The notes: a model not told the origin generated them from the letters alone. Counted from the stretch's first letter, positions 20,350 through 29,240 are shown. The stretch: DNA of 32,000 bases from Rhodobacter capsulatus SB 1003 (GCF_000021865.1 NC_014034.1:2670001-2702000), one strand, 5' to 3'. Program-made: numbers and translations.

Positions 20350-22134
20350 ATGAACGATATTCACGAAACCCCCGCCCAGACTCTGACTGCCGATACGGCC
20401 GAACGCATCGCCAAGGTGATTGCGCGCTCGGGCGTCGCCTCGCGCCGCGATGCGGAAAAGATGATCCTTGCGGGCCGGGTGACGGTGAACGGCAAGAAGG
20501 TCGACAGCCCCGCGCTGGATGTGAAACCCGCGGACAAGGTGGCGATCGACGGCAAGCCGATCGACGCGCCGCAGGAAACCCGGCTCTGGCTTTACTACAA
20601 GCCGCTGGGCCTTGTGACGACCGAGAAGGACGAACAGGGCCGGCGCACGATTTTCGACGAGATGCCCGAGGAAATGCCGCGGGTGCTGAATGTCGGCCGG
20701 CTTGACCTCAATTCCGAGGGGCTGCTTTTGCTGACCAATGACGGCGGGCTGAAGCGGCGGCTCGAGCTGCCGGAAACCGGCTGGCTGCGCAAATACCGCG
20801 TGCGGGTGAACGGCCGCCCGACGACCGAGACCTTTGATCCCTTGCGCCGCGGCATCACCATCGACGGCGAGGATTTCCAGCCGATGGAAGTCAGCCTTGA
20901 CCGCCAGCAGGGCGCCAATGCCTGGCTGACCGTCGGCATCCGCGAGGGCAAGAACCGCGAGATCCGCCGCGCCATGGGCGAGGTCGGCATGACGGTGAAC
21001 CGGCTGATCCGGGTCAGCTACGGCCCGTTCCGGCTCAATGACATGGAACCGGGTGCCGTGGTCGAGGTGAAACGCAAGATGCTGCGCGACCAGCTGGGCG
21101 ACCGGCTTTTGCTGGGGGTCGAGGATGGCAAGCCGCCGCGGTCGGAACGGATGGCGCCGAAGCCCGGGGCCCGCAGACCGCGCCCCGAGGGCGGCGAGGG
21201 CGAGGAGCGCAAGGGCTTTGGCCGTCAGCGCGATTTCGCCGGGGCGGAGGGCGATCGCAAGCCGAAGTCCTTCGGCATGAAATCGCATCGCGAGGAGGGC
21301 GAGCGCAAACCCTTCGCGCGGCGCGAGGACGGCGAGCGGAAGCCCTATGCGCGTCGTGAAGACGGCGACCGCAAGCCCTACGCCCCGCGCGATGGCGAGA
21401 AGAAACCCTACGCGCGTCGCGAAGACGGCGACCGCAAGCCCTATGCGCCCCGCGATGGCGAGAAGAAGCCCTATTCGCGTCGCGAAGACGGCGACCGCAA
21501 GCCCTACGCCCCGCGCGACGGCGAGCGGAAGCCCTACGCCCGTCGTGAAGACGGCGACCGCAAGCCCTATGCGCCCCGCGATGGCGAGAAGAAGCCCTAT
21601 GCGCGTCGCGAAGACGGCGACCGCAAGCCCTACGCCCCGCGCGACGGCGAGCGGAAGCCCTACGCCCGTCGTGAAGACGGCGACCGCAAGCCCTACGCGC
21701 CCCGCGATGGCGAGAAGAAACCCTACGCGCGTCGCGAAGATGGTGACCGCAAGCCCTACGCGCCCCGCGATGGCGAGAAGAAACCCTACGCGCGTCGTGA
21801 AGACGGCGACCGCAAGCCCTACGCCCCGCGCGACGGCGAGAAGAAACCCTATGCGCGTCGCGAGGATGGTGACCGCAAGCCCTACGCGCCCCGCGATGGC
21901 GAGAAGAAACCCTATGCGCGTCGTGAGGATGGCGACCGCAAGCCCTATGCCCCGCGCGATGGCGAAGCGGGCAAATCCTTCGGGCCGCGCGGCGGCAAGC
22001 TCGGTTTCAAATCCGAGGGCTTCAAAAGCCACGGCGGCAAACCCGGCGGCAAACCGCGCTCGGAAGGGTTCAAAAGCCACGCGGGCGGCGACAAGCGCCC
22101 CTTCGGCGGCAAGCCCGGCCCGAAACGCGGCTGA
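20350..22134 (+). CDS. rluB: 23S rRNA pseudouridine synthase B (RsuA/RluB family) with long repetitive charged C-terminal tail
   Basis: S4 domain (RIAKVIARSGVASRRDAEKMILAGRVTVNGK). Catalytic block VGRLDLNSEGLLLLTNDG. REGKNREIRR. From about residue 300 onward there is a low-complexity K/R/D/E/P/Y tail with tandem repeats. Confidence 0.9.
   Translation: MNDIHETPAQTLTADTAERIAKVIARSGVASRRDAEKMILAGRVTVNGKKVDSPALDVKPADKVAIDGKPIDAPQETRLWLYYKPLGLVTTEKDEQGRRTIFDEMPEEMPRVLNVGRLDLNSEGLLLLTNDGGLKRRLELPETGWLRKYRVRVNGRPTTETFDPLRRGITIDGEDFQPMEVSLDRQQGANAWLTVGIREGKNREIRRAMGEVGMTVNRLIRVSYGPFRLNDMEPGAVVEVKRKMLRDQLGDRLLLGVEDGKPPRSERMAPKPGARRPRPEGGEGEERKGFGRQRDFAGAEGDRKPKSFGMKSHREEGERKPFARREDGERKPYARREDGDRKPYAPRDGEKKPYARREDGDRKPYAPRDGEKKPYSRREDGDRKPYAPRDGERKPYARREDGDRKPYAPRDGEKKPYARREDGDRKPYAPRDGERKPYARREDGDRKPYAPRDGEKKPYARREDGDRKPYAPRDGEKKPYARREDGDRKPYAPRDGEKKPYARREDGDRKPYAPRDGEKKPYARREDGDRKPYAPRDGEAGKSFGPRGGKLGFKSEGFKSHGGKPGGKPRSEGFKSHAGGDKRPFGGKPGPKRG
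21340..21969 (+). repeat. Ten in-frame tandem copies of a 63-bp (21-aa) unit inside rluB
   Basis: The unit KPYARREDGDRKPYAPRDGE(K/R) occurs 10 times. Variation is almost only at synonymous or K/R positions. Degenerate copies precede it at about 21301..21339. Each unit is itself two related KPYA half-units (11 + 10 aa). Confidence 0.95.
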
Positions 22135-22163: not shown

Positions 22164-22192
22164 CCGGTTGCGCCTACCTTGAGCGCAACCGG
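22164..22192 (+). other. 10-bp perfect stem-loop between rluB and the sORF/xpaC-like genes
   Basis: CCGGTTGCGC (22164..22173) and GCGCAACCGG (22183..22192) with a 9-nt loop CTACCTTGA. No T-tract. It ends 9 nt before the GGAGGG SD of the sORF. Confidence 0.6.
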
Positions 22193-22209
22193 CAACCGGC
22201 GGAGGGCCC

Positions 22210-22293
22210 ATGTCGCGCAAGACCATGCAAACCATCGCTTTCGGACTGCTTCTGGCGCTGATCTTCTCGGTCGCGCTGAAAGGCACGGTCTGA
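22210..22293 (+). CDS. Candidate 27-aa single-TM small protein (not in ORF track)
   Basis: The ORF atg tcg cgc aag acc atg caa acc atc gct ttc gga ctg ctt ctg gcg ctg atc ttc tcg gtc gcg ctg aaa ggc acg gtc tga encodes MSRKTMQTIAFGLLLALIFSVALKGTV. GGAGGG lies at 22201..22206. About 21 of 26 third positions are G/C. Its stop is 1 nt before the xpaC-like ATG. Confidence 0.45.
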   Translation: MSRKTMQTIAFGLLLALIFSVALKGTV

Positions 22294-22294
22294 C

Positions 22295-23206
22295 ATGGCG
22301 CAGCGTTTCGGCGGCAAATATTCGCCCCGGCCCGGGGCGCCCACGCCGGGCTTTCCCGGCGTCGCCCCCGACCGGCTGCCAGATCCCGCGCCGCGCCACC
22401 GGCTGGCAGGCCGCCCGGCCTGGCTGGTCTTTGCGGCCTTCCCCTTTCTTTTCAATGCGTTCGGCGATGGCCCCCTGGCGCTTGCGCGCAATCTTGGCGC
22501 CTTTGCCACGATCGGCCTGGCCGCCTTTCTGCTGCGCGAGGGGCTGAAGGCCGAGGCCGCCTGGGACGCCCGCAAGACCGCCCGCCGCCCCGCCCTGCCG
22601 CGCAAGGCCCTGGGGTCGGTGCTGCTGGGGGCGGGGCTGGCCGCGGGGGCGCAGGCGCCCGAACTTGGCCTGATCGGCACGGGGGTCGTGGCCGCCGTGG
22701 GCCTGGCGCTTGGCCTGATCGGCTTCGGCCTTGATCCGATGCAGGACAAGGGGATGGAAGGGGTCGACGCGTTTCAGCAAGACCGCGTCGCGAAAGTGGT
22801 GGCCGAGGGCGAAAAGCACCTGACCGCCCTGCGCGAAGCCATCGCCCGGATCGACGACGCACGGCTGACCGCCCGGACCGAGGCCTTTGCCGCCTCGGCC
22901 CGCGGGCTGTTTCGCGCCGTCGAGGATGACCCGGGCGATCTGACCGCGGCGCGGCGCTACATGACCGTCTATCTGCAGGGCGCCCGCGACGCCGGGGTGA
23001 AATTCGCCGATCTCTGGGCGGGCAACCGCGACGAAACCGCCCGGGCCGCCTTCGAATCGCTGCTTGATGATCTGGAGGCGAATTTCACCGCCCGCACCCG
23101 GGCGCTGCTGGAAAGCGGCCGCGAGGGGCTGGAGATCGAAATCGAGGTCCTGCGCGACCGGCTGGCCCGCGACGGCGTGATCAGCGCCCCCGGAAGCGAC
23201 CTCTGA
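22295..23206 (+). CDS. XpaC-like (5-bromo-4-chloroindolyl phosphate hydrolysis family) membrane protein
   Basis: 303 aa. N-terminal hydrophobic helices (AWLVFAAFPFLF, LGAFATIGLAAFLL, VVAAVGLALGLIGFGL) followed by a helical C-terminal domain (ARRYMTVYLQGARDAGVKFADL...). The family call rests on recalled similarity and on synteny with telA. Confidence 0.6.
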   Translation: MAQRFGGKYSPRPGAPTPGFPGVAPDRLPDPAPRHRLAGRPAWLVFAAFPFLFNAFGDGPLALARNLGAFATIGLAAFLLREGLKAEAAWDARKTARRPALPRKALGSVLLGAGLAAGAQAPELGLIGTGVVAAVGLALGLIGFGLDPMQDKGMEGVDAFQQDRVAKVVAEGEKHLTALREAIARIDDARLTARTEAFAASARGLFRAVEDDPGDLTAARRYMTVYLQGARDAGVKFADLWAGNRDETARAAFESLLDDLEANFTARTRALLESGREGLEIEIEVLRDRLARDGVISAPGSDL

Positions 23207-23210
23207 CCGC

Positions 23211-23245
23211 GCGCGTTTCCCGCCCGGAAACGCGCCGTTCTTTTC
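23211..23245 (+). terminator. Rho-independent terminator after the xpaC-like gene
   Basis: GCGCGTTTCC-CGCCC-GGAAACGCGC (10-bp stem) followed by CGTTCTTTTC. Confidence 0.8.
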
Positions 23246-23336
23246 AAACCGCCCATTTTCCCGGCAGTTTTCGCAGCTTGGCCACAAAACGGCCGCACCG
23301 GAGGGCGAGTCTGGCCCCCCGTGTCAAAGGTGTCCC

Positions 23337-23879
23337 ATGGTCGAGACCGCCCCGCCGCCCCGCCTGCTTGCCGCCGCTCTTGCGCGGCTGGCGCAATGTC
23401 CCCGCCTTCTGCTCGGCCCGCTACATGCCACCCTGGCGCTGCGCCAAAGGCCCGGGCCGCTGGCGCCGCTCGCCCCCGCCAAGCATCTGGCCGAGGGCGG
23501 CGATCTGCCTGCGGCGGTGAAGCTGCGGATGACCGAGGTGCACCGGCAATTGCGCCGCCTTGCGCCGGAGCTGCTGCCCGTCTTCGCCGAATGCCGCGCC
23601 GCGCAGCTGCGGCTCCTGCATGATCAGCCCGGCCGCGCCCCCGAGGCCCGGCGCGAGGCCGAAACCGCCCTGATCGGCGCGCTGGTGCAGATCGAGGCCG
23701 CCACGCGCAAACTTTCGGTTGTCCTTCCCGAGACGACGAAGGAATATGCCCTTGGCAACTACGCCGACACGCTCGAAAAAGTCACGGGCGAGACGCTGGA
23801 TTGCCTGATTGCGCTGCGTGCCCGGACCAGGGGTGCTCTGCGTGGGGTGCAGATCGGGGGCGAGGTCGATCGGGCCTGA
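23337..23879 (+). CDS. Hypothetical protein (no family recognised), first gene of the telA operon
   Basis: 180 aa. Strong G/C third-position bias in this frame, while the antisense ORF 23421..23930 is Arg/Gly-rich junk. The C-terminal half looks alpha-helical (EAETALIGALVQIEAATRKL...). The start is uncertain because the SD before ATG 23337 is weak. Confidence 0.5.
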   Translation: MVETAPPPRLLAAALARLAQCPRLLLGPLHATLALRQRPGPLAPLAPAKHLAEGGDLPAAVKLRMTEVHRQLRRLAPELLPVFAECRAAQLRLLHDQPGRAPEARREAETALIGALVQIEAATRKLSVVLPETTKEYALGNYADTLEKVTGETLDCLIALRARTRGALRGVQIGGEVDRA

Positions 23880-23899
23880 CACTGCCCCAAGGGGGGACC

Positions 23900-25066
23900 A
23901 TGACCGAGACCGTCCGCGCCGAAGCCGCAAAGGCGCTTGCCGAGATCGAAACCGTGACCGCGACGCCTTTGGCCGAGCCCGCCCCGCCGCCGGTGCCGCT
24001 GGCCGAAGCCGCCCCGCCCGTGGCCGAGGCGATCCGCGCCCGGATGGCGGAAATCGACCTGCGCGACAGCGGCTCGATCACCCAGTTCGGCACCAAGGCG
24101 CAGGTGGAATTGCAGGCGATCTCGCAGGAGATGCTGGCCGATGTCCGCGCCAAGGATCTGGGCGCGGCGGGCGACAGCCTTTCGGCGCTGGTGACGACGA
24201 TCCGCGGTTTCTCCGAGGAGGAACTGGACGTGCGCCGCGAACGCTCGCTTTGGGACCGGCTGACCGGCCGCGCCGCGCCGTTTGCGAAATTCGTCGCCCG
24301 CTACGAAGAGGTGCAGGGCCAGATCGACAGCATCACCGATGCGCTTCTGGGCCATGAACAGCGGCTGCTGGTCGATATCAAGGCGCTCGATCGGCTTTAC
24401 GAGAAGACCCTGAAATTCTACGACGAACTGGCGCTTTACATCGCCGCGGGCGAGGCGAAGATCGCCGAGACCGACCGCGCCGACATCCCCGCCAGGGAAG
24501 CCGCGCTGGCCGCCGCCCCCGAGGCCGACAAGATGCTGCGCGCGCAGGAGCTGCGCGATCTGCGCGCGGCGCGCGACGATCTGGAACGGCGCGTGCATGA
24601 TCTGAAGCTGACGCGACAGGTGACGATGCAGTCGCTGCCCTCGATCCGGCTGGTGCAGGAAAACGACAAGAGCCTGATCACCAAGATCAATTCGACGCTC
24701 GTCAACACCGTGCCGCTGTGGGAAACGCAGCTGGCGCAGGCGGTGACGATCCAGCGCTCGGCCGATGCGGCGAAAGCGGTGAAGGAGGCGGCCGATCTGA
24801 CGAACGCGCTGCTGGCGGCCAATGCCAAGACCCTGCGCGAGGCCAATGCGACGGTGCGCACGGAAATGGAGCGCGGCGTTTTCGACATCGCGGCGATCCG
24901 CGGCGCCAATGCCGAGCTGATCGCGACGATCGAGGACAGTCTGCGCATCGCCGACGAGGGCAAGCGGCACCGCGCCGAGGCCGAGGCGGAACTGGTCACG
25001 CTGGAAGCCACGCTGCGCGAGACGCTGTCTTCGGCCCGGGCCAAGCCGGTGCAGGGCAAGGAATGA
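23900..25066 (+). CDS. telA: TelA-family toxic anion resistance protein
   Basis: Start set to ATG 23900 (AGGGGGGA SD). About 388 aa, long coiled-coil-like. Characteristic TelA blocks: ITQFGTKAQ, LLVDIKALDRLYEKTLKFYDEL.YIAAGE, MQSLPSIRLVQENDKSLI.KINST. Confidence 0.85.
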   Translation: MTETVRAEAAKALAEIETVTATPLAEPAPPPVPLAEAAPPVAEAIRARMAEIDLRDSGSITQFGTKAQVELQAISQEMLADVRAKDLGAAGDSLSALVTTIRGFSEEELDVRRERSLWDRLTGRAAPFAKFVARYEEVQGQIDSITDALLGHEQRLLVDIKALDRLYEKTLKFYDELALYIAAGEAKIAETDRADIPAREAALAAAPEADKMLRAQELRDLRAARDDLERRVHDLKLTRQVTMQSLPSIRLVQENDKSLITKINSTLVNTVPLWETQLAQAVTIQRSADAAKAVKEAADLTNALLAANAKTLREANATVRTEMERGVFDIAAIRGANAELIATIEDSLRIADEGKRHRAEAEAELVTLEATLRETLSSARAKPVQGKE

Positions 25067-26010
25067 CGCAAGGTCAAAGACTTGCGGCGCTTTTCGCGCT
25101 GACCACGGCGCTTTCGGGCTGCTTTTTCGAGACCGACAAGGGCGGGCTTGACCGCTCTCCGCGGCCTGCGCCCGCACCGCCCGCGCCGGTCTCGGTCAGC
25201 CCGCGCAGCGCCGAAAGTCTGGCCGTCGAGACCTATTACCGTCAGGTCGAAACGACGCTGCGCAGCCGCGGGCTGATGCGCGTCGATGTTGCGCCCCGCG
25301 ATGCGCCCTTTGCCACGCATCAGCTGATCGAGAATTTCATCCATATCGCGCTTTACGACGAATATTCCGCCTTTGGAGGCACTTACATCGCGCAGACCCG
25401 GGCCTCGCGGCTGCGCCGCTGGGAGGTTCCGGTGCGGATGTCGGTCAGTTTCGGCGATTCTGTGCCGCTGGCGCAGCGCGCCCGGGACCGGGCGATGATC
25501 TCGGCCTATGCGGGCCAGCTGGCCACCGCGACGCGCCATCCGGTTTCGGTCGTCAGCGAGGCGGCGAATTTCGACGTGCTGGTGGTGAACGAGGACGAAC
25601 GCCGCGCCCTCGCCCCGCGGCTGATGCAGCTGGTGCCCGGCATCGACGCCGCCTCGGTCACGGCGATCACCAACCTTGCGCCCTCGACCTTCTGTGTCGT
25701 CTTCGCCTTCTCGGCGGGCGACGCGCCTGCCTACAACCATGCGGTCGCGGTGATCCGCGCCGAACATCCCGACCTGATGCGGCGGTCCTGCGTGCATGAG
25801 GAACTGGCGCAAGGTCTTGGACTTGCGAATGATTATCCGAATGCGCGGCCCTCGGTCTTCAATGACGACGAGGAATTCGCGCTGCTGACCCGGCATGACG
25901 AGCTGTTGCTGCGGATGCTTTATGACCCGCGCCTGCGCCCCGGCATGACCGAGGCCGAAGCGCGGCCGATCATCACCGACATCGCCACCGAACTGACCGG
26001 CGGCAGCTAG
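25063..26010 (+). CDS. DUF2927-family lipoprotein (putative periplasmic metallopeptidase-like)
   Basis: Start ATG 25063 overlaps the telA TGA (ATGA). Lipobox LSGC. Conserved CVHEELAQGLGLANDY (HExxxQ..G) block typical of the Rhodobacterales DUF2927 family as I recall it. Confidence 0.7.
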   Translation: MTQGQRLAALFALTTALSGCFFETDKGGLDRSPRPAPAPPAPVSVSPRSAESLAVETYYRQVETTLRSRGLMRVDVAPRDAPFATHQLIENFIHIALYDEYSAFGGTYIAQTRASRLRRWEVPVRMSVSFGDSVPLAQRARDRAMISAYAGQLATATRHPVSVVSEAANFDVLVVNEDERRALAPRLMQLVPGIDAASVTAITNLAPSTFCVVFAFSAGDAPAYNHAVAVIRAEHPDLMRRSCVHEELAQGLGLANDYPNARPSVFNDDEEFALLTRHDELLLRMLYDPRLRPGMTEAEARPIITDIATELTGGS

Positions 26011-26018
26011 GAGGACCC

Positions 26019-27131
26019 ATGGGCATTCTCGATTTCCTGACCGGCGAATTCATCGACGTGATCCATTGGGTCGATGACACGCGCGACACCATGGTCTGGC
26101 GCTTCGAACGCGAGGGGCATGCGATCAAATACGGCGCGAAACTGACCGTGCGCGAGGGGCAGGCGGCGGTTTTCGTGCATGAAGGCCAGCTGGCCGATGT
26201 CTTCGGGCCCGGGCTTTATCAGCTTGAAACCAACAACTTGCCGATCCTGACGACGCTGCAGCATTGGGATCACGGCTTCCGCTCGCCCTTCAAATCCGAG
26301 ATCTATTTTCTCAACACCACCCGCTTCACCGATCTGAAATGGGGCACGAAGAACCCGGTGACCTGCCGCGATCCGGAATTCGGCCCGGTGCGGCTGCGCG
26401 CCTTTGGCACCTATGCGATGCGCATCGTCGATCCGGCTGTTTTCATGAAGGAAATCGTCGGCACCGATGGCGAATTCACCGCCGACGAGATCAGCTTTCA
26501 GATCCGCAACGTGATCGTGCAGGAATTCTCGCGGGTGATGGCCGCGGCGAAGATCCCGGTGCTCGACATGGCGGCGAACACGGCCGACATGGGCAGGCTG
26601 GTGGCGGGGGCGATCGATCCGGTGATTGCGGCCTATGGCCTGTCGATCCCGGAATTCTACATTGAAAACATCAGCCTGCCCGAGGAAGTCGAGAAGGTTC
26701 TGGATCAGCGGACCTCGATGGGGATCGTTGGCGATCTGAACCGCTACATGCAGTTCAACGCCGCGCAGGCGGTGGCGCAGCCGGGCAGCCCGATGGGCAC
26801 GGCGATGGGCATGGGCATGGGTGCAGGAATGGGGATGGGCATGGCTGCCGGGCCCTGGGGCGCGCCCGCCTCTGCCCCCGCCGCGGTCGCGGTCGCGCCG
26901 CCCCCTCCGCCGCCGCCGCCCATCGAAGCCGTCTGGCATGTGGCGGCGAACGGGCAGACGACCGGCCCCTTTGGCCGCGCGCAACTGGCGGCGATGATCA
27001 CCGCAGGCGGGTTCAGCCGGGCCAGCCTGGTCTGGGCACCGGGACAGGAGGGATGGAAACCGGCCTCTGACGTGCCGGATCTGGCCGCGCTTTTCGCCAC
27101 CACGCCGCCCCCGCCGCCGCCCGGGGTGTAA
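26019..27131 (+). CDS. SPFH/Band-7 (YdjI-like) domain protein with C-terminal GYF_2 domain
   Basis: MGILDFLTGEFIDVIHWVD...VFVHEGQLADVFGPGLYQLETNNLPIL is the typical SPFH Band_7_1 N-terminus. Met/Gly-rich linker. PPPPPPPP (26898..26921). GYF_2-like WHVAANGQTTGPFGRAQLAAMITAGGFSRASLVWAPGQEGWKPASDVPDL. C-terminal PPPPPP (27105..27122). AGGAGGA SD. Confidence 0.82.
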   Translation: MGILDFLTGEFIDVIHWVDDTRDTMVWRFEREGHAIKYGAKLTVREGQAAVFVHEGQLADVFGPGLYQLETNNLPILTTLQHWDHGFRSPFKSEIYFLNTTRFTDLKWGTKNPVTCRDPEFGPVRLRAFGTYAMRIVDPAVFMKEIVGTDGEFTADEISFQIRNVIVQEFSRVMAAAKIPVLDMAANTADMGRLVAGAIDPVIAAYGLSIPEFYIENISLPEEVEKVLDQRTSMGIVGDLNRYMQFNAAQAVAQPGSPMGTAMGMGMGAGMGMGMAAGPWGAPASAPAAVAVAPPPPPPPPIEAVWHVAANGQTTGPFGRAQLAAMITAGGFSRASLVWAPGQEGWKPASDVPDLAALFATTPPPPPPGV

Positions 27132-27134
27132 GCC

Positions 27135-28262
27135 ATGGCCCTGCCCAAGGTCAGCCGCGACAAGACCGAACATCACACCCCCTGCGAGGCCTGCGGCGCC
27201 GATCTGCGCTTCGCGCCCGGTCAGGAAAAGCTCGTCTGCGATCATTGCGGCCACGAACAGGCGATCCCGCGCGCCCTTGGCCGGGGCCGGTCCGGGCTGG
27301 CGGAACTGCCGCTGGCGGCCGGTCTGGCGGCGCGTCTGCCCGCCGCGGCGATGCAGGAGAGCCGGACGCTCACATGTTCGAATTGTGCAGCGCTGATCGA
27401 GATCACCGGCGCAAATCACGCGGTGCAATGTCCGTTTTGTGCAACTCCCGTGGTGATCGACACCGGCCTGACGCGGCAGATCAAGCCGCAGGGCCTGGTG
27501 CCTTTCGCGCTGACCGAAGCGCAGGCGCATGCGGCGCTGGGCAAATGGCTGTCCGGGCTCTGGTTCGCGCCCTCGGGTCTGACGCAATATGCCCGCAAGG
27601 GGCGCCGGATGACCGGCGTCTATGCGCCGTTCTGGACCTTCGACGCCGAGACCCGCTCGCATTACAGCGGCGCCCGCGGCGACGCCTATTACGAGACCGA
27701 ACAGGTCCGGGTCGAGGTCAACGGGAAGATGGAGACCCGCAGCCAGCAGGTGCGTCATGTCCGCTGGACCCCGGTCGCGGGCCGGGTCGCGCGCGATTTC
27801 GACGATGTGGTGATCTATGCCTCGCGCTCGTTGCCGCCCGCCTACATGGCGGCGCTGCAGCCTTGGGATCTGTCGGCGCTGACGCCCTATCACCCTGATT
27901 ACCTTGCCGGATTCGAGGCCGAGGGCTATACGGTCGATCTGTCGGACGGCCACGGTCAGGCCCGGACCGAAATGGCGCGGGTGATCGACATGGATGTGCG
28001 CCGCGACATCGGCGGCGACGAACAGCGCGTCGCCTCGATCGACACCGATTTCTCGGCCGAGACCTTCAAGCACATCCTGTTGCCGATCTGGACCGCCGCC
28101 TACAGATACCGCGACCGCTCCTATCGTTTCGTCGTGAATGCGCAAACCGGGCAGGTGCGCGGCGACCGGCCCTGGTCGGCCTGGAAGATCGCCTTTGCGG
28201 TCGCGCTGGCGGCGCTGGCGCTGGGGCTGGGCCTTTGGCTCTACAATATTCAACAACACTGA
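27135..28262 (+). CDS. Double zinc-ribbon protein with C-terminal transmembrane anchor (YdjG-like architecture)
   Basis: Two ribbons: CEACGADLRFAPGQEKLVCDHCGH and CSNCAALIEITGANHAVQCPFCAT. About 230-aa central domain of unknown function. C-terminal TM WKIAFAVALAALALGLGLWLY. Starts 3 nt after the SPFH stop. Confidence 0.7.
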   Translation: MALPKVSRDKTEHHTPCEACGADLRFAPGQEKLVCDHCGHEQAIPRALGRGRSGLAELPLAAGLAARLPAAAMQESRTLTCSNCAALIEITGANHAVQCPFCATPVVIDTGLTRQIKPQGLVPFALTEAQAHAALGKWLSGLWFAPSGLTQYARKGRRMTGVYAPFWTFDAETRSHYSGARGDAYYETEQVRVEVNGKMETRSQQVRHVRWTPVAGRVARDFDDVVIYASRSLPPAYMAALQPWDLSALTPYHPDYLAGFEAEGYTVDLSDGHGQARTEMARVIDMDVRRDIGGDEQRVASIDTDFSAETFKHILLPIWTAAYRYRDRSYRFVVNAQTGQVRGDRPWSAWKIAFAVALAALALGLGLWLYNIQQH

Positions 28263-28276
28263 TTTATTGCGCCCTG

Positions 28277-28308
28277 CCCCGCTTGGCGCTATGTCTCGCC
28301 AAACGGGG
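28277..28308 (+). other. Imperfect stem-loop overlapping the SD region of the fructokinase gene
   Basis: CCCCG(c)TTGGCG (28277..28288) pairs with CGCCAA(a)CGGGG (28297..28308) around an 8-nt loop. The 3' arm runs into the GGAGGGAAGG SD (28307..28316). No T-tract. Confidence 0.4.
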
Positions 28309-28316
28309 AGGGAAGG

Positions 28317-29240
28317 ATGATCCTGAGTTGTGGTGAAGCGCTGATCGACATGCTGCCGCGGCAAGGCACGGCGGGCGAGGCCTGTTTTGCGCCCCATGCG
28401 GGGGGGTCGGTGTTCAATACGGCGATCGCGCTGGGGCGTCTGGGGGTGCGGGCCGGGTTTCTGTCGGGGATTTCGACCGATCTTTTCGGCGAGGTGCTGA
28501 TCGGGACACTGGCGGCGTCAAATGTCGATGCGGGGCTGGCGATCCGCTCTGACCGGCCGACGACGCTGGCCTTCGTGAAGCTGGTGGATGGTCACGCAAG
28601 CTACGCATTTTACGACGAAAATACCGCCGGACGGATGATCCTTCCCGGTGATCTGCCCGCGCTTCCGGCCGCGGTGCGGGCGCTTTTCTTCGGCGGCATC
28701 TCGCTGCCCGTCGATCCCTGCGGCGGCACCTACGAAGCCCTGATGGCGCGCGAAGCGGCGAGCCGGGTCACCATGATTGACCCGAACATCCGCCCCGGTT
28801 TCATCCGCGACGAGGCCGCCTATCGCGCGCGCCTGGCGCGGATGATCGCGCTGGCCGACATCGTGAAACTCTCGGACGAGGATCTGCGCTGGCTGGAAGG
28901 CCCGGGCGAGATCGCGGCGCTGGCGCAGGGGCTGCTGCGCCGTGGGCCGAAGCTGGTCTTCGTCACCGAGGGCGGCACCGGCGCGCATGCTTTCGGCGCC
29001 GGACTGTCCGTTTTCGCCCCCGCGCAGCGGGTGACGGTGGTCGATACCGTCGGCGCGGGCGACACGTTCAACGCGGGCGTTCTGGCGGCGCTCGACCGGG
29101 CGGGACGGCTGACGAAAGCCGCTGTCGCGGCGGCCGATGCGCCGCTTGTGTCGGCCTGTCTGGCGCTTGGCAATGCGGCCGCCGCGATCACCGTCAGCCG
29201 TGCGGGCGCCAACCCGCCCTGGGCAGAGGAGCTGAAATGA
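28317..29240 (+). CDS. PfkB-family sugar kinase (fructokinase-like)
   Basis: 307 aa. [12 protein letters not shown] start. [11 protein letters not shown]. PfkB signature [12 protein letters not shown]. Confidence 0.85.

Follow-up and report, generated by a model that had tools for sequence, protein, structure and literature searches.

A gene cluster of Rhodobacter capsulatus, conserved in Rhodobacterales, that joins an XpaC-TelA pair to an SPFH-zinc-ribbon pair

Two widespread gene pairs, one encoding TelA with an XpaC-family membrane protein and the other a Band_7_1 SPFH protein with a YdjG-type zinc-ribbon (ZnR) protein, have each been linked with the ability to resist membrane-active antibiotics or toxic anions, and both are poorly understood. 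Here we describe a seven-gene locus of Rhodobacter capsulatus SB 1003 that holds both pairs and lies within a 32,000-nucleotide stretch of the chromosome (GCF_000021865.1, NC_014034.1:2670001-2702000), hereafter the window. A sequence-only reading of this stretch had proposed a PspA-less module of membrane-stress type, and the present analysis follows up that proposal.

The closest described system is the pspA-ydjGHI (pspA-samGHI) operon of Bacillus subtilis, which has a role in membrane stress (PMC8581546, PMC11237479, bioRxiv 10.64898/2026.02.06.704340). YdjG and YdjH recruit YdjI, which is soluble, as well as PspA to the membrane (Scholz et al., PMC8581546), and SamGHI senses stress even when PspA is absent (bioRxiv 10.64898/2026.02.06.704340). 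YdjG was described by Ravi et al. as having two zinc ribbons, a central YpeB/NTF2-like domain and a transmembrane (TM) segment (PMC11237479). Regarding the second pair, xpaC and telA of Enterococcus faecium have a link to cell-envelope stress and affect daptomycin resistance, where XpaC alters daptomycin binding and phospholipid microdomains only with TelA present (PMC6811118). In R. sphaeroides, a close relative, telA is counted among the chromosomal determinants of tellurite resistance (O'Gara et al. 1997, cited in PMC6955997). The sequence-only reading held that no component has an assigned activity, which is correct biochemically but overlooked the tellurite phenotype of telA, the daptomycin phenotypes of xpaC and telA, and the stress-sensor phenotype of SamGHI. 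No paper in the literature searched joins TelA/XpaC with the Band-7/YdjG system or mentions DUF2927, and TelA is not named in the survey of PSP partners by Ravi et al. (PMC11237479). The parts of the R. capsulatus locus are known, and their combination appears to be undescribed.

The cluster and its described relatives

The seven genes form a same-strand run with a spacing of -4 to 20 nt, broken solely by a terminator at 23211-23245 (Table 1), and all seven open reading frames (ORFs) show a coding-type GC1/2/3 pattern with low GC2 and a GC3 of ~0.8. Profile hidden Markov model (HMM) searches recovered the XpaC (PF10112), TelA (PF05816), DUF2927 (PF11150), Band_7_1 (PF13421) and GYF_2 (PF14237) families that had been named from the sequence alone. 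The ORF boundaries and junctions given there were also borne out, apart from the start of the small ORF (sORF): position 22164 is wrong given an in-frame stop at 22180-22182, whereas its stop, 1 nt before the XpaC ATG, is correct. Both ORFs that had been reported as unannotated are real genes with conserved homologues.

Table 1. Features of the R. capsulatus cluster, in window positions.
Feature	Coordinates	Strand	Properties	Junction with the next gene
sORF, predicted 27-aa single-pass membrane peptide	22210..22293	+	ATG at 22210; Shine-Dalgarno GGAGGG at 22201-22206	stop 1 nt before the XpaC-like ATG
XpaC-like membrane protein, 303 aa	22295..23206	+	PF10112, E=2.5e-20, residues 133-286	
Intrinsic-terminator-like hairpin and T-run	23211..23245	+	10-bp stem (7 G-C pairs) at 23211-23235, then CGTTCTTTTC	
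Lineage-specific gene, 180 aa, between xpaC and telA	23337..23879	+	31 homologues	telA ATG (23900) 20 nt past the stop (23879)
TelA, a soluble helical protein of the toxic anion resistance family	23900..25066	+	PF05816, E=9.1e-102	telA TGA shares ATGA with the DUF2927 ATG (25063-25066)
DUF2927 lipoprotein	25063..26010	+	PF11150, E=4.1e-68; lipobox LSGC, Cys20	stop at 26010, SPFH ATG at 26019
Soluble SPFH (Band_7_1) protein	26019..27131	+	PF13421, E=5.3e-102; PF14237 (GYF_2), E=5.5e-19	stop at 27131, ZnR ATG at 27135
YdjG/SamG-type tail-anchored ZnR protein	27135..28262	+	two zinc ribbons, central beta-rich domain, C-terminal TM segment	

A genome scan anchored on the ZnR gene yielded 80 loci, all from Rhodobacterales because the ranking of matches follows their closeness to the leading sequence of the query alignment; gene context across phyla was taken from plasmid records and look-ups of the encoding contigs. 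The order XpaC-TelA-DUF2927-SPFH-ZnR was found in 58 of the 62 ZnR-anchored loci having enough upstream sequence, and this identity of gene order makes the arrangement more than chance. Metagenome loci anchored on TelA agree: 43-44 of 47 have DUF2927, SPFH and ZnR downstream, and 54 of 57 have XpaC upstream, so that the predicted co-occurrence beyond this strain is upheld. Median gaps are 21.5 nt for XpaC-TelA, 7 nt for TelA-DUF2927 (63 loci), 26 nt for DUF2927-SPFH and 46 nt for SPFH-ZnR. The locus is a real Rhodobacterales-conserved cluster that joins two widespread pairs, a lipoprotein and a tiny membrane peptide. From gene content, domain architectures, topology predictions, conservation and adjacencies, we propose that it may encode a membrane-surveillance and maintenance assembly at the cytoplasmic face of the inner membrane, with TelA/XpaC in the place of PspA, and we give this proposal about even odds (a probability of roughly 0.5).

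Several observations weigh against such an assembly and would suit three independent neighbours, namely sORF-xpaC, (hyp)-telA-DUF2927 and SPFH-ZnR, held together by regional synteny only. The flanking genes rluB, pfkB and dtd are also syntenic in Rhodobacterales, so part of the conservation signal is plain synteny; conservation alone could reflect inherited gene order, the joined cluster being seen in one order only. The terminator separates xpaC from the downstream genes, XpaC is missing at the locus in Paracoccus, and two taxa have kept SPFH-ZnR only, and telA-DUF2927 is lost in L016 and L047. More than 100 nt, often whole genes, lie between SPFH and ZnR in 29 loci and between DUF2927 and SPFH in 16, with unrelated genes at these positions in many roseobacters, while in one metagenome locus SPFH-ZnR is inverted (L170) and in another it is missing (L175). 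TelA has no similarity to PspA or to solved structures detectable in searches of the Protein Data Bank (PDB), and hhalign found no profile similarity of XpaC to TelA or of the 180-aa ORF product (hyp180) to the others. Moreover, the pairs are always apart outside the order. Independent neighbours would, however, sit poorly with the same-strand packing, which is overlapping or near-abutting in most loci (see the medians for telA-DUF2927 and DUF2927-SPFH), with retention in >90% of loci across a diverse order, and with a TelA-TPM link in Vescimonas (below) which suggests that TelA modules and YdjGHI-type components cooperate. We regard mere neighbourhood as the less likely of the two readings. 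A single operon is not established, since the terminator, lineage-specific breakpoints and insertions lie between the sub-modules.

The inserts between SPFH and ZnR measure 0.4-1.9 kb in L029, L036, L037, L043, L068, L076, L081 and L082. In many roseobacters the additional gene encodes a small cytochrome-b561-like membrane protein. A recurrent insert is a hydrophobic ORF family of 140-180 aa with conserved His residues and no Pfam match; the insert at L083 9377-9901 matches PF01292 (cytochrome b561), and the one at L079 9373-9858 clusters with it.

Like pspA-ydjGHI, whose operon structure is documented (PMC8581546, PMC11237479) as had been stated from the sequence, the R. capsulatus locus has the gene for a soluble Band_7_1 SPFH protein (YdjI/SamI) beside that for a two-zinc-ribbon TM protein (YdjG/SamG), and an internal terminator parts an upstream effector gene from the scaffold genes. 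Unlike the B. subtilis operon, it lacks PspA and the TPM protein (YdjH), its SPFH protein ends in GYF and polyproline rather than a zinc ribbon, SPFH precedes ZnR, and it has XpaC, TelA, a lipoprotein of the DUF2927 family and a short TM peptide instead. PspA_IM30 matched none of the 34 ORFs scanned in the 32-kb window and TPM_phosphatase nothing in the cluster or window; the label PspA-less thus stands for the window, as a statement about the window and not the genome. The suggestion that TelA sits where PspA does is reduced to a positional analogy, TelA being without detectable similarity to any solved structure. Compared with SPFH-NfeD or flotillin operons (YuaG/YqiK-YuaF/YqiJ), the locus likewise sets an SPFH scaffold gene beside that of a dedicated membrane partner, but the partner is a tail-anchored ZnR protein and the Band_7_1 SPFH protein has no anchor of its own.

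The XpaC-family membrane protein gene directly upstream of a YaaN-type TelA is an order shared with B. subtilis, where the xpaC-yaaN adjacency claimed earlier was seen, and with C. butyricum, Cytobacillus and Vescimonas. It differs from the Firmicutes xpaC-telA pair in that the R. capsulatus XpaC is 303 aa long and contains roughly four hydrophobic segments, that a presumably coupled 27-aa peptide is encoded ahead of it, that the Rhodobacter-like group has a lineage-specific gene and the terminator before telA, and that the pair continues into DUF2927 and SPFH-ZnR.

The RK2/IncP kilA-telA-telB (klaABC) determinant shares the TelA family (PF05816) with the locus and raises the question of a determinant primarily for tellurite or toxic-oxyanion resistance, a chromosomal counterpart in which the neighbours would assist detoxification or exclusion. 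The window TelA matches PF05816 over its full length (bit score 341, cut-off 30; profile positions 3-331 of 332), and it also matches PHROG 5890, 'tellurite resistance' (5.9e-49), next to the R. sphaeroides listing mentioned above. However, it is nearer to the YaaN type (34% identity to B. subtilis YaaN) than to IncP KlaB (25%), the R. capsulatus locus is chromosomal, core and without KlaA or TelB, and no KlaA/KilA, TelB or TerC/TerD genes occur in the window. In Firmicutes, the TelA/XpaC phenotypes concern cell-envelope antibiotics and not tellurite specifically (PMC6811118), and resistance to tellurite would also fit a broader function in membrane stress, of which it may be one readout. We consider a dedicated tellurite determinant unlikely.

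R. (Cereibacter) sphaeroides likewise has a chromosomal telA, at a locus that is probably the orthologous cluster. In the work of O'Gara, Gomelsky & Kaplan (1997), a telA mutant of this species reportedly lost tellurite resistance; the neighbours of telA are said to be unrelated to kilA or telB, and SPFH, ZnR, DUF2927 and XpaC partners were reportedly not described.

Beyond Rhodobacterales the joined module was not seen, and the XpaC-TelA and SPFH-ZnR pairs occur separately. The ZnR gene directly follows a Band_7_1 SPFH gene in Cohnella, Sporosalibacterium, Vibrio coralliilyticus, Comamonas, Tsukamurella and Enterococcus gallinarum; TelA, XpaC and DUF2927 are present in none of these six loci. 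This recurrence in six distant lineages indicates that SPFH-ZnR is an ancient functional pair, a portable core that recurs in several phyla and whose partners (PspA, TPM, TelA/XpaC) can be exchanged. The Enterococcus set is SPFH-ZnR-TPM without PspA and has the domains of YdjI/YdjG/YdjH. Bare XpaC-TelA pairs occur in B. subtilis, C. butyricum and Cytobacillus, and a KlaA-TelA arrangement was seen only on plasmids (Pseudomonas, IncP).

Individual loci outside the order add further detail. Vescimonas fastidiosa pMM35_01 (L096 3589-5995) carries XpaC, TelA and a TPM-domain protein consecutively, an independent junction of a TelA module with a YdjH-type component. The E. gallinarum SPFH-ZnR-TPM genes (L091 1-8907) adjoin dnaX-ybaB-recR-tmk-darA-holB, and B. 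subtilis xpaC-yaaN (L092 3203-8912) lies just upstream of tmk-darA-holB, part of the same conserved set. On a V. coralliilyticus plasmid (L088 611-8047), the SPFH-GYF/ZnR genes stand beside divergent TIR-domain and TRAF-binding-domain genes with a PLD-like gene near. This setting resembles a defence island and so differs from that in R. capsulatus.

Component proteins

The ZnR protein has no Pfam family match; its own family is very large, with 6869 clusters at 50% identity, and the window protein shares 99% identity with an R. capsulatus entry. Eight invariant Cys in CxxC pairs form the two ribbons and are followed by a central domain of ~230 aa with conserved DIGGDxQR and NGxTGxVxGxRP motifs. 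A predicted TM helix spans residues 347-373 with almost nothing past it, and since the helix sits at the C-terminal end, the protein would be a tail-anchored cytoplasmic one. The family extends into Firmicutes: one representative match, 36% identical (E=3e-68), falls in the same 90% cluster as WP_258384987, a 'TFIIB-type zinc ribbon' protein of Paenibacillus spongiae, and the Enterococcus protein encoded between the SPFH and TPM genes aligns over its full length at 25% identity (E=3e-36). Homology to YdjG is reached via these Enterococcus and Paenibacillus proteins rather than by direct alignment to B. subtilis YdjG. Both architecture and gene context fit the YdjG-type assignment made in the sequence-only reading. 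Of the YpeB link, a weak PepSY match (E=0.15, residues 319-344) is the only echo.

An AlphaFold2 model of the ZnR protein (64 sequences; pLDDT 87.9, pTM 0.77) places three helices against beta-hairpins of great length (residues 160-228 and 296-335). The modelled hairpins are charged and unusually long, with strands of ~30-36 residues. A Foldseek search of the model against PDB gave a best E of 0.03, with TM-scores <=0.15 among the top matches listed, leaving the central domain of the YdjG family without a solved structural relative. The nominal top matches were beta-barrel pore toxins and secretins. We do not take them as a sign of pore formation, since the toxin matches are due only to the long hairpins, and the hairpin carries charge instead of being amphipathic.

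The SPFH protein has no predicted TM segment and hence misses a membrane anchor of its own. A Gly/Met-rich linker and then a polyproline run connect its SPFH domain with the GYF domain, and the protein closes with a tail LFTxxPPPPPPG[AV], which in the window protein ends in PPPPPPGV. Across Rhodobacterales, 73 of 73 SPFH proteins have PPP motifs bordering the GYF domain, and such motifs lie on either side of it in the Vibrio and Tsukamurella Band_7_1-GYF proteins too. More broadly, the C-terminal adaptor of Band_7_1 proteins varies, being GYF in Rhodobacterales, Vibrio and Tsukamurella, a zinc ribbon in Firmicutes and a helix-turn-helix (HTH) domain in Comamonas. Proline-rich, PPG-type peptides are ligands of GYF domains, and self-association or autoinhibition is therefore the probable contribution of the GYF domain and the polyproline stretches beside it. 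Binding of the GYF domain to a PPG motif in XpaC or TelA was rejected, PPG[hydrophobic] motifs being found solely in the tail of the SPFH protein itself. In PDB searches of the SPFH, TelA, DUF2927 and ZnR proteins, the sole match at E <= 0.001 was the GYF domain 7z3c.

TelA has no predicted TM segments and a mean column identity of 79% across Rhodobacterales. Sequence and profile searches with TelA against PDB gave nothing beyond chance level, and the relation of TelA to major vault protein (Suprenant 2007, as cited in PMC3762200) was not recovered at significance in these searches.

In the DUF2927 lipoprotein, the lipobox Cys20 is invariant in 29 of 29 sequences, as is a motif C-x-H-E-E-x-x-Q-G-x-G-x-x-N-D. 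Residues 235-271 contain the conserved string AEHPD...SC.HEELAQGLGLAND...FNDDEE with the invariant or near-invariant H235, C243, H245, E246, E247, Q250, N256, D257 and D268-E271, which together look like a putative metal-binding or catalytic site. Sequence and profile searches against PDB returned chance-level matches only, and a single-sequence structure model was unusable (pLDDT 43.6). An Aeromonas DUF2927 gene adjoins one for a YgjP-like metallopeptidase, with no TelA match among the neighbouring ORFs scanned.

The sORF peptide (MSRKTMQTIAFGLLLALIFSVALKGTV) has a hydrophobic core at residues 4-27 and one predicted helix. Homologues of 27-31 aa (MS.TGLQKLAF.LLVAL.LYVA.TGG) abut or overlap the XpaC start in most Rhodobacterales loci, between-species nucleotide changes leave the peptide intact, and the gene caller missed it in two of three related genomes inspected (L003, L004). 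As judged from this arrangement, the sORF is predicted to be translationally coupled to the XpaC-like gene. The XpaC-like protein comprises about four hydrophobic segments and then a C-terminal helical Halogen_Hydrol domain (PF10112; 73.7 bits, cut-off 29.8, profile positions 29-191 of 191), with a conserved N-terminal MAQRFGGKYSP motif and a likewise conserved loop REGLxAEAAYxARKVARRPAxPRK. BLASTP of the window protein against B. subtilis XpaC found no similarity, and it is accordingly a distant family member recognisable by HMM only.

The stem and T-run of the terminator claimed after xpaC were confirmed, and a comparable hairpin and T-run follow xpaC in Rhodobacter sp. TJ_12. The 180-aa ORF downstream has no Pfam, NCBIfam or PHROG match. 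All named sources among its homologues are Rhodobacter or Paenirhodobacter, and it lies between XpaC and TelA in three of three relatives examined (L003, L004, L005). It was not found in other Rhodobacterales, where xpaC abuts or overlaps telA, and we therefore regard this gene and its terminator as a lineage-specific insertion. Homologues have 216-261 aa with hydrophobic N-terminal segments. In a comparison of length and N-terminal region with P0123 and P0126-P0147, ~50 residues of this hydrophobic region were gone from the window copy and from the relatives P0121, P0122 and P0124, and were kept in another R. capsulatus entry, P0123 (229 aa); the window ORF is thus a truncated form without the membrane segment of its homologues. 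Profile comparison gave no evidence of paralogy for XpaC/TelA, hyp180/XpaC, hyp180/TelA, hyp180/DUF2927 and XpaC/SPFH, with hhalign probabilities all <1%. A GGCCACAAA box upstream of the 180-aa gene (23283-23305) is conserved in three genera and in R. capsulatus lies within a small inverted repeat, GGCC-ACAAAAC-GGCC; the box with its repeat is a possible regulatory site.

Proposed membrane-surveillance assembly

Every physical interaction in the following model is inferred, as are the stress signal and the part of TelA as effector. The assembly would be built of three separable sub-modules, SPFH-ZnR, sORF-XpaC and TelA-DUF2927. The ZnR protein, as YdjG/SamG counterpart, would dock the soluble SPFH protein, the YdjI/SamI counterpart, on the membrane, where it may oligomerise into a scaffold. 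The sORF peptide and polytopic XpaC, with its cytoplasmic helical domain, could form a membrane partner and regulator of TelA, which would itself be made in a fixed ratio with the periplasmic DUF2927 lipoprotein. TelA/XpaC would then be the arm that acts on damaged membrane, to stabilise or reorganise it in the manner of PspA in Bacillus pspA-ydjGHI, and DUF2927 may supply an extracytoplasmic component, the role of the TPM protein YdjH in Firmicutes. The Vescimonas XpaC-TelA-TPM genes indicate that TelA modules also recruit a YdjH-type component. Finally, the terminator after xpaC might set differing expression of the two halves or tune stoichiometry, like the pspA-ydjG terminator.

More specifically, but only tentatively, TelA with XpaC and the peptide as membrane receptor might be a PspA-independent membrane-repair effector that the ancient SPFH-ZnR platform recruits and organises, with DUF2927 coupling it to the periplasm or outer membrane. 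If true, this would be the first case of the long-unexplained TelA family being genetically tied to an SPFH scaffold, and would offer a direct handle on TelA function. The cluster raises the question of whether the SPFH platform recruits TelA as it does PspA in Bacillus; being order-wide and present in the genetically tractable R. capsulatus, it sets both pairs, the lipoprotein and the micro-peptide together and makes TelA function testable.

Genomic setting and minor observations

The cluster is set among housekeeping genes, with nth, ada/ogt, an OmpA-family gene, a peptide ABC transporter, pheA, tadA and rluB upstream, and pfkB, dtd, a DEAD-box helicase gene and tdk downstream. This setting bears on an anti-phage or gene transfer agent (GTA)-related infection-response system, a role that had been offered in the sequence-only reading. 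The SPFH-GYF/ZnR genes beside TIR-domain and PLD-like genes on the V. coralliilyticus plasmid, distant ZnR homologues in a few phage records and the occurrence of TelA as a phage moron family would all agree with it. Yet no PADLOC model matched the seven proteins at E<=0.01, the PHROGs scan of the same proteins matched TelA alone, no mobile-element or defence genes are found among the genes of the window, base composition shows no shift, and the cluster is core and syntenic across the order, unlike typical defence islands. An infection-response role is therefore unsupported and seems very improbable.

The NCBIfam scan of the cluster proteins gave nothing specific beyond Pfam. Rfam and tRNA scans of the window detected no RNA genes, no EcfG-type promoter motif (GGAAC-N15-18-CGTT) occurs in the window, and no sigma-70-like promoter was found within the cluster. 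An antisense ORF of 796 aa (26007-28397, minus strand) runs across the SPFH and ZnR genes, and further long antisense ORFs lie over the cluster; as genes, these were dismissed as high-GC artefacts.

Upstream, rluB (20350-22134) contains 10.1 tandem copies of a 63-bp repeat unit (88% matches) at 21331-21965, which encode a charged KPYARREDGDRKPYAPRDGE-type C-terminal tail of the pseudouridine synthase RluB; RluB length among relatives ranges from 381 to 639 aa. Near the start of the window, a gene for a Hint-domain (PF13403) protein (1388-2380) lies between nth and the Ada/Ogt-type methyltransferase gene.

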